Source: a virus
Lineage: Duplodnaviria; Heunggongvirae; Uroviricota; Caudoviricetes
DNA: 33,734 bases
Virus record (IMG/VR): IMGVR_UViG_2778261657_000006
Span: 1-33,734 of that record
Strand: one strand, 5' to 3'
The notes below the pieces were generated by a model that worked only from the letters and a program-made list of their open reading frames with translations, did no database searches and was not told the DNA's origin. The first letter of the stretch is position 1, and the number at the start of each line of letters is the position of its first letter. Shown in pieces: positions 1,789-33,734 of this stretch. The translations under genes and the position numbers were made by a program.

Positions 1789-3600
1789 TTAAAGGATCCA
1801 GATTTCAGGATTCTTTAGCGTCTCAATTTGGTTTTTATTACTGGCATAAAATGCATGATACATGTCTATCATTTTTTCGTTGGAGCTGATAAAAACAGAT
1901 GGATCTTTGTTTAAAATTCTGCTATATGTATCAAATATTGCTTTGTATTCTGGTGTTAAATTATTAGATAGAACTGATGTTACTGTCTCAACTTTGTTTG
2001 ATGGATTGAAATTTTTAAAAAACAGTCCTTCGAAATGAGGTATTTGAATAAATACCATTGGTTTTTTACTTTTAGAGCATTCGTTCATTATGGATACATT
2101 TGAACCCCATGCTCCATTACCTGAAACGCTTCCTTGCTTTAAGCATTTTGGAATGTCGGAGTCATGTACTGCTATATACTCAACGTTAAATTGATTTAAT
2201 ATTTTAGCAAATGTTTTTATATTCCCTTTTCCTAAACAGTCAATGATATGATAATCAACTCCGACAATATCACATATTTTGTTAATGACGATTTTTTCAG
2301 TTGGGCCTTCAACTAATATTATATTGTCGTAAAAGAAAAACTCATTAACCATTGGGTTGCATAATCTTATCATTTTCATATTATCTTTTTCCTCTTCAGA
2401 AAAAGATAGTTCATCTGTAGATATTGTTTTATTTAGCGATTTGTCTTTTTCTATCCTAATTATAGTCGTGTGCTTCTTGGATAAGTCTATGAATACAGGG
2501 GAGTGTGTTGTAGCCATCACCTGCCAGTTATCATTGTTTGCTGCAAAATCATAAAGCGAGTCCCTCGCACTTCTAATTATAGGAGGGTGAAGAAATGATT
2601 CAGGCTCATCAATCAATAAAATATATTGTTTTTTCTCAACAGAGATAGGCTTACCTTTCGCTTTTTTTATTTTATCTCGTGCATGAGATTCGTGAGTCAA
2701 AATTTGCAAAGCAGACCATAAAACGGAGCGGCGAACACCGTGACCTTGGTTCTCGAGAAGAGAGCTATTTATCCCATCCATTTTCACTGTAAGGTTAGAT
2801 TCTGAAACCATAACATCCGCATCTACGGGATCCTTGGAAAGTATGTTTAATTCCAGTTCTAGCCCAGGAAAAACAGATGATGATGATTTGGAGACCTGCT
2901 GTAGAAGATCATCGATTTTTGATTTGGAATCTTTCATAAGAGTGTCTGTCAACTCTTGTATTTTCTGTATTATATCAGCTTTACTTTCCCCTGTTTTCAG
3001 TAACTCATCTTTTGCATCTTCCTTTAAGAAACTTATGATAATTTTTTTAGTTTCATCCATGGATTTATCTGGGCTTATTCTTATTGGTTGAGGAACTCGA
3101 CTTTGTAGTAGTGTGTCAAGTCCCCCAGAGCCCCCATCAATAAATATGCGTTTGCCAGAGGCATCATCAAGGCCATAGGATTGTTTTTGGGCTGCTTTTT
3201 CTGGATGTGACCAAACCCATTTAACACAATAATAGAGTTTGCTTTCCAATGGGGTATTATTTTTCTCCCAATCTCCCCCATACTTTCTTGCCATATTTCT
3301 TCTGTCAAGAGCATCATCTTTATAAAACCATTTCTCTCCCCCTAATGTACGAATATCATCATCAGTGATATCAGTGAAAATTCCGCACATTTCAATTGGT
3401 ATAGATATATCTGAGTTATAAAAATCATGAGCAGTCAGGCCTTTTGCTGATCCTAAAGATGCAAACTTTTCATACGCATCTAATATTGTTGACTTTCCAG
3501 AGTTATTTGGACCAATTAGCACAACTATATCATCGATATATACTTCTATTTCATCTTTTATCGACTTGTAATTTTTAATATTAAATTGCTGTAGCTTCAT
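1789..3600 (-). CDS. OLD-family (overcoming lysogenization defect-like) ABC-type ATPase fused to a TOPRIM nuclease domain; candidate anti-phage defence / exclusion protein
   Basis: 603-aa ORF. N-terminal Walker A GPNNSGKST (aa 30-38), Walker B/D-loop LLIDEPESFLHP, H-loop ATTHSP. C-terminal TOPRIM signature ILVEGPTEK (conserved Glu, about aa 431) and HDSD (DxD, about aa 480; codons around 2161-2169). Very AT-rich compared with the flanking phage genes. Candidate TATAAT -10 upstream and a hairpin terminator downstream. Confidence 0.8.
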   Translation of the reverse strand: MKLQQFNIKNYKSIKDEIEVYIDDIVVLIGPNNSGKSTILDAYEKFASLGSAKGLTAHDFYNSDISIPIEMCGIFTDITDDDIRTLGGEKWFYKDDALDRRNMARKYGGDWEKNNTPLESKLYYCVKWVWSHPEKAAQKQSYGLDDASGKRIFIDGGSGGLDTLLQSRVPQPIRISPDKSMDETKKIIISFLKEDAKDELLKTGESKADIIQKIQELTDTLMKDSKSKIDDLLQQVSKSSSSVFPGLELELNILSKDPVDADVMVSESNLTVKMDGINSSLLENQGHGVRRSVLWSALQILTHESHARDKIKKAKGKPISVEKKQYILLIDEPESFLHPPIIRSARDSLYDFAANNDNWQVMATTHSPVFIDLSKKHTTIIRIEKDKSLNKTISTDELSFSEEEKDNMKMIRLCNPMVNEFFFYDNIILVEGPTEKIVINKICDIVGVDYHIIDCLGKGNIKTFAKILNQFNVEYIAVHDSDIPKCLKQGSVSGNGAWGSNVSIMNECSKSKKPMVFIQIPHFEGLFFKNFNPSNKVETVTSVLSNNLTPEYKAIFDTYSRILNKDPSVFISSNEKMIDMYHAFYASNKNQIETLKNPEIWIL

Positions 3601-4059: not shown

Positions 4060-4234
4060 GGCTGTGGGTGCTTGAGGCTATCTGCCTCGGGCATGAACAC
4101 CAACGGCAGATAGAGAAAAGCCCCAGTTAACATTACGCGTCCTGCAAGACGCTTAACATTAATCTGAGGCCAATTTCATGCTAGACACATGTAGGTTAGC
4201 CTCTTACGTGCCGGAAGGCAAGGAGAAGCAGGCT

Positions 4235-4390
4235 ATGAAGCAGCAAAAGGCGATGTTAATCGCCCTGATCGTCATCTGTTTAACCGTCATAGTGACGGCA
4301 CTGGTAACGAGGAAAGACCTCTGCGAGGTACGAATCCGAACCGGCCAGACGGAGGTCGCTGTCTTCACAGCTTACGAACCTGAGGAGTAA
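4235..4390 (+). CDS. hokD: Hok/Gef-family membrane toxin (type I toxin), HokD/RelF-like
   Basis: 51-aa product MKQQKAMLIALIVICLTVIVTALVTRKDLCEVRIRTGQTEVAVFTAYEPEE: single N-terminal transmembrane helix plus the conserved Hok motif (TRK.LCE.R...G..EVAAF.AYE). The ORF track extends it in frame to 4178, but the recognisable Hok protein begins at the internal Met. Confidence 0.8.
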   Translation: MKQQKAMLIALIVICLTVIVTALVTRKDLCEVRIRTGQTEVAVFTAYEPEE

Positions 4391-4837: not shown

Positions 4838-5893
4838 ATGCGGGTATTGCTTCGACCTGTTCTGGTACCGGAACTCGGACTGGTTATCGTTAAGCCTGGC
4901 CGTGAATCCATGCAGGTATTCCATAACGGCAGAGTACTGGTGGAACCGGAACCGAAAAGTATGCGCGGTCTGCCGTCCGGAGTCGTTCCTGCCGTTCGCC
5001 AGCCGCTGGCGGAAGATAAATCATTACTGCCATTTTTCAGCGATGAGCGGGTAATTCGTGCTGCCGGTGGTGCTGGTGCATTGTCTGACTGGCTGTTGCG
5101 CCATATTAAATCCTGCCAGTGGCCACACGGCGATTATCATCACAGTGAAACCGTCATTCACCGTTATGGTACCGGCGCGATGGTGTTGTGCTGGCACTGT
5201 GACAACCAGCTGCGTGACCAGACCTCCGAATCATTGGAGCATCTGGCTCAACAAAACCTGGCAGCCTGGATGATTGACGTCATCCGTCACGCAATGAATG
5301 GCACGCAGGGGCGTGAATTATCACTGGCTGAACTGTACTGCTGGGCTGTTGTAAATAATGTGGTGGATGCCATGACCGAAAATATGGCGCGTCGAATCCT
5401 GAAACTTCCGGGTGAAAACATCCGCTCAGTGTACCGCGAAAGCGACATCGTACCGGGAGAACAGACCGCCACCAGCATACTGAAACAGCGCACAAAAAAT
5501 CTTGCGCCGCTGCCTCACGCCCACCAGCAAAACCCGCCACAGGAAAAGACGGTGGTCAGCATTGCCGTTGATCCGGAGTCACCGGCTCAGTATCTCCTGC
5601 GCCAGAAACCACAACGGGAAGAGATGCCTGTATACACGCGCTGGGTAAAAACGCAGAAATGCATGACGTGCGGTAATCAGGCAGATGATCCGCATCACAT
5701 CATTGGTCATGGACTGGGAGGGATGGGAACAAAGGCTGATGATTTGTTTGTTATTCCGCTGTGCCGTAAATGTCATAACGAACTGCACGCCGGGGTAAAA
5801 GATTTTGAAGAAAAACACGGCAGCCAGCTGTTGTTGCTGATTCGTTTTTTAATGCACGCGAGAAATTCGGGTGTCCTGAAGTGGAAAGCATGA
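4838..5893 (+). CDS. ydfU: DUF968-family protein (YdfU-like), with a C-terminal HNH-like Cys/His motif
   Basis: 351 aa. C-terminus CMTCGNQADDPHHIIGHG...CRKCHNELHAG (CxxC...HH...CxxCH). GGAG ribosome-binding site before the ATG. Sits immediately upstream of rusA and Q, as in Qin/DLP12-type prophages. Confidence 0.6.
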   Translation: MRVLLRPVLVPELGLVIVKPGRESMQVFHNGRVLVEPEPKSMRGLPSGVVPAVRQPLAEDKSLLPFFSDERVIRAAGGAGALSDWLLRHIKSCQWPHGDYHHSETVIHRYGTGAMVLCWHCDNQLRDQTSESLEHLAQQNLAAWMIDVIRHAMNGTQGRELSLAELYCWAVVNNVVDAMTENMARRILKLPGENIRSVYRESDIVPGEQTATSILKQRTKNLAPLPHAHQQNPPQEKTVVSIAVDPESPAQYLLRQKPQREEMPVYTRWVKTQKCMTCGNQADDPHHIIGHGLGGMGTKADDLFVIPLCRKCHNELHAGVKDFEEKHGSQLLLLIRFLMHARNSGVLKWKA

Positions 5894-6271
5894 ATGACTG
5901 AACGCATAGAATTTGTTTTGCCTTACCCGCCGACGGTGAATACCTACTGGCGACGTCGTGGCAGCACATATTTTGTATCAAAAGCCGGTGAGCGTTATCG
6001 CCGTGATGTGGCGCTTATTGTTCGCCAGCAGCGACTGAAATTAAACCTGTCCGGAAGGCTGGCAATAAAAATTATTGCAGAGCCACCGGATAAGCGCCGC
6101 CGCGACCTGGACAATATCCTGAAGGCACCACTGGATGCGCTGACGCATGCCGGACTACTTATAGACGACGAGCAGTTTGATGAAATCAATATTGTGCGCG
6201 GACTGCCTGTTCCTGGTGGGCGGTTGGGCGTGAAGATTTACGAAATTACAGGTGATAACGATGGTGCGTGA
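5894..6271 (+). CDS. rusA: RusA-family Holliday junction resolvase
   Basis: 125 aa with the RusA hallmarks: [54 protein letters not shown]. Confidence 0.85.
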
Positions 6272-6647
6272 TATTCAGCAGGTTATGGAGCGGTGGGGAG
6301 CATGGGCTGCGAACAATCACGAAGATGTGTCATGGGCGTCAATCGCTGCTGGTTTTAAAGGATTAATCCCGCCGAAAGTGAAATCACGCCCTCAGTGTTC
6401 TGATGATGATGCAATGATAATTTGTGGCTGTATGGCCCGGTTGAACAAGAAAAATCAGGATTTGCACGATTTGTTGGTGGATTATTACGTAGGTGGAATG
6501 ACTTTTATGGGGTTGGCACGAAAGCATGGGTGTTCGGATACCTGTATTGGCAAGCGCCTGCAGAAAGCGGAAGGGGTTATTGATGGCATGTTGATGATGC
6601 TTGATATCCGACTGGAGATGGACAGATACGTAGAACGAATCATGTAG
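6261..6647 (+). CDS. Late-gene antiterminator Q (phage 82 / QuuD-type)
   Basis: Product [23 protein letters not shown]...[23 protein letters not shown]... closely resembles the DLP12 QuuD / phage 82 Q family as recalled. Overlaps the rusA stop. Followed by a promoter-terminator pair. Start could also be 6252. Confidence 0.7.
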
Positions 6648-6651
6648 GAGC

Positions 6652-6681
6652 TTGACCAGACACATTGTCCGGGGCTATATT
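6652..6681 (+). promoter_or_regulatory. Candidate late promoter pR' (TTGACC - 17/18 nt - TATATT) just after Q
   Basis: Direct reading. Position matches lambdoid pR'. A hairpin at 6689-6706 (cgccag-caaaat-ctggcg) lies in the predicted leader. Confidence 0.45.
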
Positions 6682-6741
6682 CCTCACGCGCCAGCAAAAT
6701 CTGGCGTCGGGATTGGCGTCCCGGATGAAAAAGGCGACAAC

Positions 6742-6763
6742 AGACGCGCCAGCGTCTTTTTTA
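6742..6763 (+). terminator. Candidate tR' rho-independent terminator (end of a short 6S-like leader transcript)
   Basis: agacgc-gcca-gcgtct stem followed by ttttttatt, about 80 nt downstream of the candidate pR'. Confidence 0.5.
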
Positions 6764-6920
6764 TTGTCGTTTGCACTGTCACATCTCAATGGTGGGCTGT
6801 GTGGGGGCGGAGCGATCCGCGCCGGTTCCTTTTTCCCGGTTACGCCAACCCTGCACAGTTCACCACCATACTGATTGGCGTCAGCAGTGGTGATGATTCA
6901 CATAGAAAAAGGATCATCCT

Positions 6921-7409
6921 ATGGCTATTCAAATCTCAGTTGAAACTCTTTCCCCGATCACCCATAACCAAATCCCTGTCATTACTACCGAGCTTTTGGC
7001 ACAACTTTATGGCACCGAAACTAATAACATCAAAGTGAACTATACACGCAATGCCGAGCGTTTTGTTTGTGGGAAACACTACTTCAAATTGGAAGGGGCT
7101 GAGTTGCGGGAATTTAAGAACAAGGTTACTCAAAGTAACTTAGTTGCACCGCGTACAAAGCACCTCATCCTCTGGACAGAACGCGGAGCAGCCCGTCACA
7201 CCAAAATGCTGGAAACCGATCAGGCGTGGGAAGTGTTCGAAAAACTGGAAGACTGTTATTTCAGCCAAAAACAACCACCAGCAGCACAAAACACCCCAAC
7301 CCAAAATGATGGATGCGCATTACTGATCCACTTCGATAAACACGGTCAGGTCGACTTCACGGAAAAACTACCCGCCGATGCGATGGTATGCACTCTGGAA
7401 CGGTTTTAA
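6921..7409 (+). CDS. ORF6N-domain / antirepressor-like protein (BRO/KilA-N superfamily-like) in the Q-to-lysis interval
   Basis: 162 aa. N-terminal region (ITHNQIPVITTELLAQLYGTETNNIKVNYTRNAERF..GKHYFKLEG.ELREFK) resembles the ORF6N/antirepressor fold as recalled; not searched. AGGA-type ribosome-binding site (aaaaaggatcatcctATG). Confidence 0.5.
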   Translation: MAIQISVETLSPITHNQIPVITTELLAQLYGTETNNIKVNYTRNAERFVCGKHYFKLEGAELREFKNKVTQSNLVAPRTKHLILWTERGAARHTKMLETDQAWEVFEKLEDCYFSQKQPPAAQNTPTQNDGCALLIHFDKHGQVDFTEKLPADAMVCTLERF

Positions 7410-7485
7410 AAATTTTCCCCGAACGCTTTACGATCGTAAAAAGTTGAATATCCTGTTAAGAGTGGTTACTACGCCAAACAGCTTA

Positions 7486-7509
7486 AACCCGCCACTGAGC
7501 GGGTTTTTT
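7486..7509 (+). terminator. Rho-independent terminator
   Basis: acccgc-cactga-gcgggt stem followed by tttttat. Confidence 0.55.
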
Positions 7510-7631
7510 ATGCCTGAAAAACGGTACAGGACGTTAAACGCGCTGGTGGTTGCGAATACTGGTCTTTCGGCTTGTATTTTTGTAAATCGATATATACTTA
7601 TCTTGTGACCAGTAATGTCAGGGCAATTGAT

Positions 7632-8375
7632 ATGAATGAAGCTTGTTCTGTTGTTTTTGTTCATTCCCCGTTTGTTGTGCTCTTTGAAGGAAAAGAGCTC
7701 TCTCTGGAAAGTGGTAGTGCACTTCTTGTCAGGGGGGGAGCTGGATCGTTATTGCCCTTTTCGGAATGTTTTCGGCGAATAAGTCTCAGTGAATCGACAA
7801 TTATCCGTTACCTGTTGTGTGGAGACGAAAAACAGGATGTAGTTTTAGTCCGGCAAATACCACGATATCTTTGCGTGAGTTTTCCCAAGGCAGAATTGAT
7901 GGGCATCCTGATTGATTATCTTTGTGAGGAAAAGATTCATACGGACAATTTAGCGGAAATGCTTTCCTTTTCGTGTCTGGCGTTTTTCTCATCAGAGAAA
8001 ATGTTTTCGTCGTTTCTGACCGCGTGTATTGGCAATATTAGTGACAGGCTTAGTGCATTGTTTCGTACGGACATTGCAGCAAACTGGACTCTGAGAGATG
8101 TGTCTTCGCGGTTATGTATCAGTGAAAGTTTGTTAAAAAAAAGACTGAAAGAAGAAGGCACCTGTTTCAGTGAGTTGTTGCTTACAGAGAGAATGAGAAT
8201 GGCAGCAATGCTGTTGAATCAATCTCGTTGCGCCATCAACAGAATCGCTGCTCAGTGTGGCTATAATTTTACATCTTATTTTATCAGCGTATTCAGGAGT
8301 TATTTTGGTGTTACACCGGCAGGTTACAGGATGGCTGCATTCAATGAGATGAGTTTAAGTGTTACTCAAGAATAA
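7632..8375 (+). CDS. AraC/XylS-family transcriptional regulator (prophage-encoded cargo)
   Basis: C-terminal AraC-type helix-turn-helix pair (WTLRDVSSRLCISESLLKKRLKEE...INRIAAQCGYNFTSYFISVFRSYFGVTPAGYR). AT-rich compared with phage core genes. Track ORF starts at TTG 7572; the first ATG is at 7632. Confidence 0.75.
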   Translation: MNEACSVVFVHSPFVVLFEGKELSLESGSALLVRGGAGSLLPFSECFRRISLSESTIIRYLLCGDEKQDVVLVRQIPRYLCVSFPKAELMGILIDYLCEEKIHTDNLAEMLSFSCLAFFSSEKMFSSFLTACIGNISDRLSALFRTDIAANWTLRDVSSRLCISESLLKKRLKEEGTCFSELLLTERMRMAAMLLNQSRCAINRIAAQCGYNFTSYFISVFRSYFGVTPAGYRMAAFNEMSLSVTQE

Positions 8376-8398
8376 TTGAATTTTGCACTCATTGAAAA

Positions 8399-8426
8399 CA
8401 GGCTCGCTGCGGCGGGCCTTTTTTAT
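8399..8426 (+). terminator. Possible rho-independent terminator after the AraC-family gene
   Basis: GC-rich imperfect hairpin (ggctcgctgcggcgggcc) followed by tttttta. Confidence 0.35.
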
Positions 8427-8554
8427 ATCCGCGCCACGTCCGGCGTACATCACATCAGATAACACCACACAAAAGGTATCTGCGGGTGCCTTTGACGGGG
8501 TGTTGTTTTTTTACGGGCCGACAGTGGCCCTTTTTTATTTACAGGAGAAAAAGT

Positions 8555-8944
8555 ATGTCTGAACCCTTATCCGGTTCCGGCACGGCTGCGGCGCTCGGTG
8601 GGGCGACGGTATTCGGGCTGTTTACCGGAACGGATTTCGGGATTGTGTTTGGTGCATTCGCAGGGGCGCTGTTTGTGGCCACGATACCACAGAAGATTTC
8701 TGTCTGGCGTGTGGCAGCGCATTTTCTGGTGTCGTTCATTGTTGGCGTGCTGGGGGCGGATGTGATGGCGTCTTACCTGGTTGAAAAACTGAATCTCCAC
8801 AGCACATCTCTCGACGCGCTTTGCGCGGTACTGGTATCGGTGGTGTCGGTGAAGATTCTCTCATTCATCCACCAGCAGGATATCGCATCGCTGGTATCCG
8901 GGCTGTTCTCCCGTCTGCGGGGTGGAGGCGGTAATGTTAAGTAA
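8555..8944 (+). CDS. Putative holin (multi-transmembrane small protein)
   Basis: ATG preceded by aggaga. About three hydrophobic transmembrane segments and a charged C-terminus. First gene of the lysis cassette, upstream of the endolysin. Confidence 0.55.
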   Translation: MSEPLSGSGTAAALGGATVFGLFTGTDFGIVFGAFAGALFVATIPQKISVWRVAAHFLVSFIVGVLGADVMASYLVEKLNLHSTSLDALCAVLVSVVSVKILSFIHQQDIASLVSGLFSRLRGGGGNVK

Positions 8945-9212
8945 CCTTCCCGGATTACTGAATGTGGTGTTAAGCACGGTTATCGTGCTGACGCTCTTTT
9001 TTTATCGTCGTGGTGAGTCGAGACATAAACCGCTGATGTCGTGGCTGGCCTGGCTGCTGATGCTGCTTTATGCCTTTGCGCCGCTTTGTTATCTGTGTGG
9101 TCGCTTTCCACCCGGTAACTGGCTGGTCGTCCTGATTAACCTGGTGTTCTGCGTGCTGGTGATACGAGCACGCGGGAACGTATCAAAAATCCTTGTATTA
9201 CGAAGGCGCTGA
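8934..9212 (+). CDS. Putative second holin/antiholin-like membrane protein
   Basis: GGAGG ribosome-binding site 5 nt upstream. Two to three transmembrane helices and a basic C-terminal tail (VLRRR). Overlaps the preceding gene end. Confidence 0.5.
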   Translation: MLSNLPGLLNVVLSTVIVLTLFFYRRGESRHKPLMSWLAWLLMLLYAFAPLCYLCGRFPPGNWLVVLINLVFCVLVIRARGNVSKILVLRRR

Positions 9213-9213
9213 T

Positions 9214-9759
9214 ATGAAGTCGAAAGATGAAATTTTTGACGAAATTCTGGGAAAAGAGGGCGGTTACGTCAATCACCCGGATGATAAAGGTGGTCCGACT
9301 AAATGGGGCATCACTGAAAAAGTTGCCCGTGCACACGGTTATCAGGGCGATATGCGTGACCTGACGCGTGGGCAGGCGCTGGAAATACTCGAGGCGGACT
9401 ACTGGTACGGACCACGATTCGACCAGGTTGAGGACCTGTCTCCTGATATTGCCGCAGAGTTGTGCGATACGGGCGTGAACATGGGGCCAACTGTGGCGTC
9501 CAGAATGCTTCAGCGCTGGCTGAACGTTTTCAACCTGCGCGGGAAACTCTATCCGGATATGGATGCAGATGGACGCATCGGGCCGCGTACTCTTAATGCA
9601 TTACGGGCATATCTGAAAAATCGCAGCAGGGATGGTGAACTGGTACTGGTGAAAGCCCTGAACTGTACGCAGGGCGAGCGTTATCTGGAGCTGGCAGAGA
9701 AACGCGAGGCCAATGAGTCGTTTGTCTATGGCTGGATGAAAGAGCGCGTGGTGGTTTAA
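9214..9759 (+). CDS. Endolysin, glycoside hydrolase family 108-like with a C-terminal peptidoglycan-binding domain
   Basis: N-terminus MKSKDEIFDEILGKEGGYVNHPDDKGGPTKWGIT is the typical GH108 start (EGGY...D.GG.T..GIT). C-terminal PG_binding_3-like region. Family recalled, not searched. Confidence 0.7.
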   Translation: MKSKDEIFDEILGKEGGYVNHPDDKGGPTKWGITEKVARAHGYQGDMRDLTRGQALEILEADYWYGPRFDQVEDLSPDIAAELCDTGVNMGPTVASRMLQRWLNVFNLRGKLYPDMDADGRIGPRTLNALRAYLKNRSRDGELVLVKALNCTQGERYLELAEKREANESFVYGWMKERVVV

Positions 9760-33153: not shown

Positions 33154-33734
33154 TGGCATTCAGAATGAGTGAACAACCACGGACCATAAAAATTTATAAT
33201 CTGCTGGCCGGAACTAATGAATTTATTGGTGAAGGTGACGCATATATTCCGCCTCATACCGGTCTGCCTGCAAACAGTACCGATATTGCACCGCCAGATA
33301 TTCCGGCTGGCTTTGTGGCTGTTTTCAACAGTGATGAGGCATCGTGGCATCTCGTTGAAGACCATCGGGGTAAAACCGTCTATGACGTGGCTTCCGGCGA
33401 CGCGTTATTTATTTCTGAACTCGGTCCGTTACCGGAAAATTTTACCTGGTTATCGCCGGGAGGGGAATATCAGAAGTGGAACGGCACAGCCTGGGTGAAG
33501 GATACGGAAGCAGAAAAACTGTTCCGGATCCGGGAGGCGGAAGAAACAAAAAAAAGCCTGATGCAGGTAGCCAGTGAGCATATTGCGCCGCTTCAGGATG
33601 CTGCAGATCTGGAAATTGCAACGGAGGAAGAAACCTCGTTGCTGGAAGCCTGGAAGAAGTATCGGGTATTGCTGAACCGTGTTGATACATCAACTGCACC
33701 TGATATTGAGTGGCCGACTTCACCTGCAGAGTAA
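33153..33734 (+). CDS. tfa: Tail fibre assembly protein (Tfa chaperone)
   Basis: 193 aa directly downstream of, and overlapping, the stf stop. Typical Tfa position and size. Confidence 0.8.

Follow-up and report, generated by a model that had tools for sequence, protein, structure and literature searches.

Which of the genes lying between the antiterminator gene Q and the lysis genes of a lambdoid prophage are late cargo, and from which promoter are they transcribed? The question is raised by a stretch of 33,734 nucleotides (nt), IMG/VR record IMGVR_UViG_2778261657_000006, which is an Escherichia coli lambdoid prophage and is referred to, in its whole length, as the window. Between Q and the first holin gene, it carries an open reading frame (ORF) with an ORF6N domain, whose phage homologues are annotated as antirepressors, and a gene for an AraC-family regulator. 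With a probability of about 0.6, this interval is a mosaic in which two inserted modules flank the probable late promoter pR', an RNA-controlled and truncated antirepressor gene standing before it and an induction-coupled AraC regulator after it, the targets of the latter being, judged from its family, those of the acid-resistance system AR2. The features on which this reading is built are given below.

6252-6647, + strand: antiterminator gene Q (PF06530)
6652-6681, + strand: promoter of the RNA module, found by the promoter scan (TTGACC, 18-nt spacer, TATATT)
6675-6727, + strand: c4-a1b1 (RF03163), the a1/b1 target hairpins of C4 RNA (52.2 bits, gathering threshold 46.7)
6688-6763, + strand: isrK-like short RNA (RF01394, Rfam match to 6762; 79.4 bits, gathering threshold 50)
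6785-6870, + strand: C4 antisense RNA (RF01695; 74 bits, gathering threshold 45)
6921-7409, + strand: ORF with an ORF6N domain (PF10543)
7427-7463, + strand: probable pR' (-35 TTTACG at 7427-7432, 16-nt spacer, -10 TATCCT at 7449-7454, start near 7459)
7485-7509, + strand: terminator (8-bp stem and T-run), the first in the late unit, at which the mobile AraC module has its left edge
7510-7631, + strand: conserved upstream region of the AraC gene
7632-8375, + strand: AraC-type regulator gene (HTH_18, HTH_AraC)
8400-8425, + strand: terminator after the AraC gene (8-bp stem with 6 GC pairs, T-run; fold z -3.2)
8515-8536, + strand: terminator-like hairpin, the second one, immediately ahead of the ribosome-binding site of the holin gene (weak fold, z -1.5)
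8555-8944, + strand: first holin gene of the lysis cassette, end of the cargo interval (PF16931, 3.7e-22)

The content of the interval is as described in the original prediction. Both genes and their coordinates are right, the first carrying the ORF6N domain (PF10543, 3e-21, residues 12-96) and the second HTH_18 and HTH_AraC; Pfam matches confirm that the interval runs from Q, ending at 6647, to the lysis genes, whose first holin starts at 8555; and hairpins with T-runs are present as terminators at 6742-6763, 7485-7509, 8400-8425 and 8515-8536. The layout of the late unit has to be redrawn. The candidate pR'/tR' at 6652-6763 coincides with Rfam matches to isrK, c4-a1b1 and C4, whereas homology to the PR' of Shiga toxin (Stx) phages is found at 7424-7512. 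The antirepressor-like gene, previously counted as late cargo, lies upstream of the probable pR' and thus is not cargo of the late operon, besides being truncated at its C-terminus. Each gene had been given a terminator of its own: the AraC gene keeps that at 8400-8425, whereas the hairpin behind the ORF6N gene, at 7485-7509, belongs to the late unit, of which it is the earliest terminator. This hairpin is also the only one between pR' and the regulator gene, where two (6742-6763 and 7486-7509) had been placed.

By its sequence, the stretch 6652-6763 is predicted to be the RNA module of an antirepressor gene, of the type of P1 immI and Gifsy-1 isrK, and not pR'/tR'. Its promoter matches the consensus at 10 of 12 positions and is the sole site between 6200 and 8700 to reach the threshold of the promoter scan (at least 9/12). 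The isrK-like RNA, ended by an intrinsic terminator at 6742-6763 (stem 6742-6757 and T6), folds with -28.6 kcal/mol (z -2.3 against shuffles), and the C4 element with -43.5 kcal/mol (z -4.4), none of 200 shuffles being equally stable. The C4 hairpin loop UCCUUUUUC is perfectly complementary, over 9 bp, to the a2 site GAAAAAGGA (6905-6913), which spans the Shine-Dalgarno sequence of the ORF6N gene (ATG at 6921), while the C4 single strand ACGCCAA pairs over 7 bp with the b2 site UUGGCGU (6875-6881). Upstream copies of these targets stand at 6713-6719 (b1) and 6727-6734 (a1). Pairing was judged by loop-restricted complementarity in place of whole-sequence duplex energies; over whole sequences, the energies of C4-target duplexes show no difference from shuffles (z -0.1 to -1.9).

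The three Rfam matches also occur in Stx2a_F723 and in TUM9757, and the promoter is kept in the nin-region copy of the former as well as in the latter. In TUM9757, Q, promoter and first hairpin are nearly identical to those of the window (one mismatch, in the spacer) and the remaining leader diverges, with the b loop and both b targets changed concordantly, and the a loop and the downstream a target likewise. The Watson-Crick runs between loops and targets measure 7-9 bp in cognate combinations versus 3-6 bp in non-cognate combinations of the window and TUM9757. The heteroimmune c4 alleles of P1 and P7 differ from each other in such an allele-matched pattern of loops and targets. In Stx phages, a copy of the leader module precedes roi and Q, within the nin region, and serves an antirepressor of 224 residues. 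Identity between the two copies is about 98% in the non-coding leader (window 6665-6920, Stx-phage locus L002 5999-6255) but about 84% in the antirepressor coding sequence next to it, with complete divergence past codon 116. Such a contrast would be expected if the RNA elements are under selection, or if the leader has recently been exchanged by itself. As a whole, the module would work as follows: the promoter at 6652-6681 would make a short IsrK-like RNA ending at 6763, read-through transcripts would carry the C4-type RNA, and the C4 loops would base-pair where ribosomes bind to the ORF6N message, which would stay untranslated.

The succession of Q, IsrK RNA with its terminator, processed C4-like RNA, antirepressor and lysis genes is shared with the isrK locus of Gifsy-1, ordered antQ-isrK-orf45-anrP-isrJ-lysis (PMC4825925), and with immI of P1/P7 (c4-icd-ant). 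With P1/P7 immI, the window further shares antisense loops directed at upstream sites and at ribosome-binding sites, and an allele-specific covariation like that of P1 versus P7. In contrast to Gifsy-1 and P1, no separate leader ORF (orf45, icd) is evident in the window, the only candidate being a 40-residue ORF with a TTG start (6771-6893) that overlaps C4, and the a2 site lies on the Shine-Dalgarno sequence of the ORF6N gene itself, which is truncated. The two models also differ from each other since IsrK activates translation in Gifsy-1, whereas C4 represses it in P1.

If the promoter after Q serves an antirepressor, where is the late promoter? The stretch 7427-7454, between the ORF6N and AraC genes, is probably pR'. 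The Q protein belongs to the Q21/PF06530 family (2.5e-52, 176 bits) and, within it, to the H-19B/933W/QuuD subtype. It likely starts at the GTG at 6264, which gives 127 residues, and tblastn against phage records puts its identity to H-19B Q at 83%; global alignments to H-19B Q, Sp4 Q and QuuD yield 101-105 identical residues (about 80%), with 105 shared with the 144-residue H-19B Q, whose 17-residue C-terminal tail is absent from the window protein. In H-19B and Sakai Sp5, the sequence TTTACGATCGTAAAAATCTGCATATCATGATAAGAGTGGTTACATTGCC...AACCCGCCGATGCGCGGGTTTTTTT stands at the Q stop codon, and its counterpart in the window is 7424-7512, not 6648-6763. For this segment, identity amounts to 76-77% with Sakai Sp5 and H-19B (PR' region), 78% with the Sp4 element and 93% with TUM9757. 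In the alignment with the Stx PR' region, the -35 and -10 elements are in register and AAGAGTGGTTA is conserved. The start of the Stx PR' transcript was mapped by Sy et al. 258 nt upstream of the 3' end of StxS, that is, of tR' (PMC7547250). Counted back from the second terminator in Sakai Sp5, it falls at position 744 of locus L014, 5 nt past TATCAT. At the corresponding end of the window promoter, AAGAGT (7458-7463; AAGAGT-GG at 7458-7465 is conserved) is taken to resemble the lambda pause element AACGAT-GGG.

The hairpin at 7485-7509 is conserved in six loci with three types of Q, and the homologous hairpin of locus L003 is scored as a terminator. In Sakai Sp5, a terminator-like hairpin with T7 (L014 771-796) lies about 28-53 nt past the PR' start, before the published tR' at +258, and this first hairpin of the Stx phages may be a partial terminator or a pause site. 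No Rfam match to isrJ or to a StxS-like RNA was found in 7410-7640 at E <= 1; a kinship of the short pR' transcript with IsrJ, considered at first, was given up.

A palindrome of 14 bp, TTTACGATCGTAAA, which is perfect and has GATC at its centre, overlaps the -35 element of pR' (7427-7440; L014 712-725 in Sakai Sp5). It is unique in the window, where 0.01 chance matches are expected, and recurs in EC11, UTAK-5, TUM9757, Stx2a_F723, H-19B and Sakai Sp5; in Stx phages, the Q stop codon falls inside it. This palindrome could be a protein-binding or a Dam-sensitive site. As for the distance from Q, a CAAX-protease gene lies between Q and a pR'-like element (38137-38222) in Sakai Sp4 (L006 37088-38222). 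Displacement of pR' from Q by inserted genes thus appears to recur, by isrK-ant in the window and by the protease gene in Sp4. In Gifsy-1, the order Q-isrK-antirepressor is that of the window, and pR' was not located there.

The ORF6N gene standing before pR' may be decaying. It encodes 162 residues and, compared with the intact 185-residue allele of TUM9757, has undergone a 72-bp deletion, flanked by short TTTAAA-type repeats, that joins codon 162 to the original stop codon and removes the last 23 residues. That the ORF6N protein is still a working antirepressor and that the IsrK/C4 module triggers an SOS-independent prophage induction, as in Gifsy-1, is a doubtful prospect. Indeed, the lost C-terminus includes RGW...L..LM.L, a motif common to two intact ORF6N proteins, the RefSeq annotation by the Prokaryotic Genome Annotation Pipeline (PGAP) marks the gene as an incomplete pseudogene ("missing C-terminus"), and in UTAK-5 the same gene is additionally broken by an insertion of IS66. 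These observations stand against the integrity of all RNA control elements, the open frame with its good Shine-Dalgarno sequence, and the retention of the ORF6N domain (residues 12-96) with about 40 further residues. The truncated allele is, moreover, identical in 12/12 genomes with the whole arrangement. Among the 5426 complete E. coli genomes that were surveyed, these 12 carry 6600-8500 as one stretch at an identity of at least 99.6%, and most of them give a cattle, bovine or farm source; here and below, remarks on sources and hosts concern the genomes listed among the matches, a subset of all carriers.

What kind of regulator, then, stands after pR'? The 247-residue product is assigned from its sequence to the YdeO/GadW/GadX/AppY/Psr/PatE subgroup of the AraC/XylS family, which bears out its proposed kinship with prophage AraC regulators that rewire acid resistance or virulence, its relatives including PsrA/B, PatE and AppY. 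HTH_18 (51.6 bits, cut-off 33.6, 1e-13) and HTH_AraC (49.9 bits, cut-off 26.6, 3e-13) are both matched, as is the structure of the GadX DNA-binding domain (3mkl, 2e-22). The BLAST and profile search that had been suggested for this protein returned PsrA, presumed PatE, YdeO and GadW at 35-39% identity and YdeO as the best NCBIfam model (146.9 bits, model positions 2-228 of 253). Both this score and that for GadX (98 bits) fall under the equivalog cut-offs, 348 and 500 bits, respectively, and the regulator is therefore not an equivalog of YdeO or GadX. Over the full length, BLASTP identities are 39% to ECs_0287, 36.5% to YdeO, 36% to GadW, 35% to PsrA and 30% to AppY, the alignments to YdeO, GadW, PsrA and ECs_0287 spanning 230-242 residues; identity to GadX is 40% over the 132-residue DNA-binding region. 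ECs_0287 of Sp1 is presumed to be PatE from its position in Sp1 and its family. The regulator is colinear over its whole length with YdeO, GadW, GadX, AppY (of DLP12), PsrA and presumed PatE. Across the subgroup, the recognition helices are nearly invariant (SESLLKK.LK.E and SYFI..F), and the start codon at 7632 is backed by the family-wide N-terminus M-x-x-x-C-S-V; in strain C5, PGAP annotates the gene with a longer N-terminus (306 residues). Close relatives of the regulator, 75-86% identical, bear no specific name, and the RefSeq protein accessions are not mentioned in the searchable literature. GadX, GadW, YdeO, AppY, PsrA/B and PatE have been tied to gadE, hdeA or AR2 (PMC10877973, PMC10057817). 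As a member of this family, the regulator would most likely bind AT-rich promoters of the gadE/hdeA acid-resistance (AR2) network.

An unlikely alternative is that the AraC gene is silent or decaying cargo, or that it regulates phage genes or other acquired genes rather than host acid resistance. Its upstream region holds no consensus promoter, the scan having found no sigma-70 site with at least 9/12 positions there. The gene is AT-rich, as stated in the original prediction (41-44% GC versus 50-55% in the flanks), which is typical of H-NS-silenced DNA; it is rare, being present, always on the chromosome, in 65 of the 5426 complete genomes (1.2%); and truncated or split copies are known from protein clusters P0006-P0011 and strain C7. 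The identity to characterized relatives is 30-40%, and the neighbouring ORF6N gene is already degraded. Nevertheless, the ORF is intact and 99-100% conserved in 38 genomes, the gene being present at an identity of at least 95% in 42. It is under purifying selection: the ratio of nonsynonymous to synonymous substitution rates (dN/dS) is 0.30 against a 91%-identical porcine variant and lower, 0.22, over the DNA-binding half, which speaks for a functional gene. The module and its upstream region are also retained in at least four prophage contexts, and each named member of the subgroup is tied to gadE/AR2 in the two studies cited above (PMC10877973, PMC10057817).

The AraC gene travels as part of a mobile module. 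The recurrent segment begins at about 7483, at the terminator, and extends across the AraC gene as far as the holin gene. It stands behind three types of Q (SA31-1, C5 and UTAK-5), always ahead of the same type of holin gene, and the prophage contexts in which it occurs number four or more. Between Q and the shared terminator, SA31-1 and C5 each possess a promoter-like sequence of their own. The 91%-identical variant lies between Q and holin in a wild-boar isolate, and the other genomes listed with it are mostly enterotoxigenic E. coli strains from pigs; among the genomes listed with the AraC gene itself, many come from cattle, farm or wildlife sources. In SA31-1, C5 and the porcine variant, the AraC gene is accompanied by the region 7510-7631, where the best candidate promoter seen by eye consists of TTGTAT (7572-7577), a 15-nt spacer and TATACT (7593-7598). 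As the first gene after pR' and its terminator, the AraC gene occupies the slot equivalent to that of stx. The view of the interval between Q and lysis genes as a cargo hotspot, with the AraC gene where stx sits, is thereby upheld, the same module standing behind three Q types and psrA occupying the same slot in Sp4. In strain C5, the slot also houses a PemK/MazF-type toxin gene, between pR'-tR' and the AraC module (L004 4403-4804). A second cargo hotspot for the subgroup is the tail-fibre end, represented by AppY (DLP12), ECs_0287 (Sp1) and, in the viable phage mEp332, a homologue (L008 10682-11431, L015 13102-13845 and L017 3992-4744), as opposed to the Q-lysis slot of the window regulator.

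According to the favoured mosaic, Q would act at 7427-7463. On induction, Q-modified polymerase starting from pR' would pass the terminators at 7485-7509, 8400-8425 and 8515-8536, placing the AraC gene on one transcript with the lysis genes, whereas in the lysogen expression of the regulator would depend on terminator leak or on a weak promoter in 7510-7631. The regulator would then activate acid-resistance promoters, as expected from its family. Several observations weigh against this arrangement. By the authors' own count, the proposed pR' agrees with the consensus in 8 of 12 positions, which is why the promoter scan misses it, and its -10 element, TATCCT, differs from the TATCAT of Stx phages. 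Its spacing is atypical: the isrK-ORF6N module intervenes, putting it 780 bp past the stop codon of Q. In Stx phages, the hairpin homologous to 7485-7509 is not the mapped tR', and the mapped tR' (+258) has no counterpart in the window. On the side of the regulator, full-length identity to characterized regulators is 30-39%, reaching 40% in the DNA-binding domain alone, and the AlphaFold2 model, built on a 9-sequence alignment, has a mean predicted local distance difference test (pLDDT) of 65, with values below 50 at residues 60-133 and a poor N-terminal domain.

Could the regulator be made without induction? A 258-nt transcript gets past the homologous hairpin of Stx phages. It is conceivable, if quite improbable, that the always-on pR' is only partly terminated at 7485-7509, in which case the AraC gene would be transcribed in lysogens all the time, from a phage late promoter. 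If true, this would provide E. coli lineages, many of those listed being from cattle or farms, with an extra, induction-free Psr/PatE-like activator of the gadE network, and cargo in the stx slot would not need to be coupled to induction.

Finally, it is very unlikely that 6652-6681 and 6742-6763 are after all pR' and tR', with the ORF6N and AraC genes as late cargo and the IsrK-like RNA as a short late transcript like lambda 6S RNA or StxS, because an approximately 98%-identical promoter, leader and terminator occurs in the Stx-phage nin region with no Q before it and the late promoter elsewhere, the stretch 6652-6870 matches three RNA families of antirepressor control, the PR' used by the about 80%-identical Q of H-19B/933W type has its homology at 7424-7512, and in Gifsy-1 deletion of PisrK still gives phage if AnrP is supplied, which makes PisrK dispensable for late genes there (PMC4825925). 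These arguments prevail over the canonical position of the promoter, 5 bp past the Q stop codon, its rank as the sole near-consensus promoter of the interval (10/12) and the short terminated transcript that it yields. Further points in its favour come from comparison: among the matches listed, those passing the first ~345 nt of Q also run on into the isrK leader; in TUM9757, Q, promoter and first hairpin are kept but for one spacer mismatch while the rest of the leader diverges; and the upstream half of the 6652-6681 spacer differs from the Stx nin-region copy, which would leave room for a Q-binding element.

Among the closest parallels to the mosaic is psrA (ECs_1087) of prophage Sp4 of E. 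coli O157:H7 Sakai, which has a paralogue, psrB. Like the window regulator, PsrA is a prophage AraC regulator of about 240 residues with the same N-terminal domain, and its gene lies between a Q of the same subtype, about 80% identical, and the lysis genes, behind a homologous pR'-terminator element displaced from Q by an inserted gene. However, the two proteins are only 35% identical, and Sp4 differs from the window by the CAAX-protease gene between Q and the pR'-like element, a small ORF (ECs_1086) before psrA and transfer RNA (tRNA) genes after it. Activation of gadE/yhiF and repression of the type III secretion system have been demonstrated by experiment for PsrA/B (PMC10877973), whereas the role of the window regulator is a prediction. 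HnrS, a prophage small RNA affecting psrA, was considered and not used, as it was published without a sequence to compare. With the Stx phages 933W, H-19B and Sakai Sp5, the window shares a homologous Q, promoter, initial transcribed region and first hairpin, as well as cargo placed directly behind PR' and ahead of the lysis genes. The differences are that PR' of Stx phages overlaps the 3' end of Q and is followed by tR' at +258 (StxS), whereas pR' of the window is 780 bp away from Q, lacks the StxS/tR' segment and the tRNA genes, and has a regulator rather than a toxin as cargo.

Further genes adjoin the interval on both sides.

4838-5893: DUF968 gene
5894-6271: RusA gene
8922-9212: second holin gene
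9211-9759: GH108 endolysin gene

Directly upstream of the DUF968 gene lies sok, the antisense RNA of the hok/sok toxin-antitoxin pair (4066-4240; RF01794, 114 bits). In the early region, an ORF of 603 residues on the - strand (1789-3600) combines an AAA_15 ATPase domain (8.5e-30) with an OLD-like TOPRIM domain (2e-14); it encodes an OLD-family nuclease and is probably an anti-phage defence gene, and two other hypothetical genes take its slot in strain EC11. At the tail-fibre end of the window, Rfam IS009 (RF02111, 224 bits) is matched at 33496-33694.

The AraC regulator in the stx slot is a further example of a known arrangement and adds an uncharacterized branch to the prophage AraC regulators of the acid-resistance and virulence network of E. 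coli. Its Psr-type placement, behind pR' in the slot of stx, recurs with different Q types. The locus also calls for caution in annotation: where Q is directly followed by a strong promoter and terminator, these can form the leader (IsrK/C4) of an antirepressor gene standing before the real late promoter, and a leader of this kind, once misread as pR'/tR', leads to the wrong genes being assigned to the late operon.

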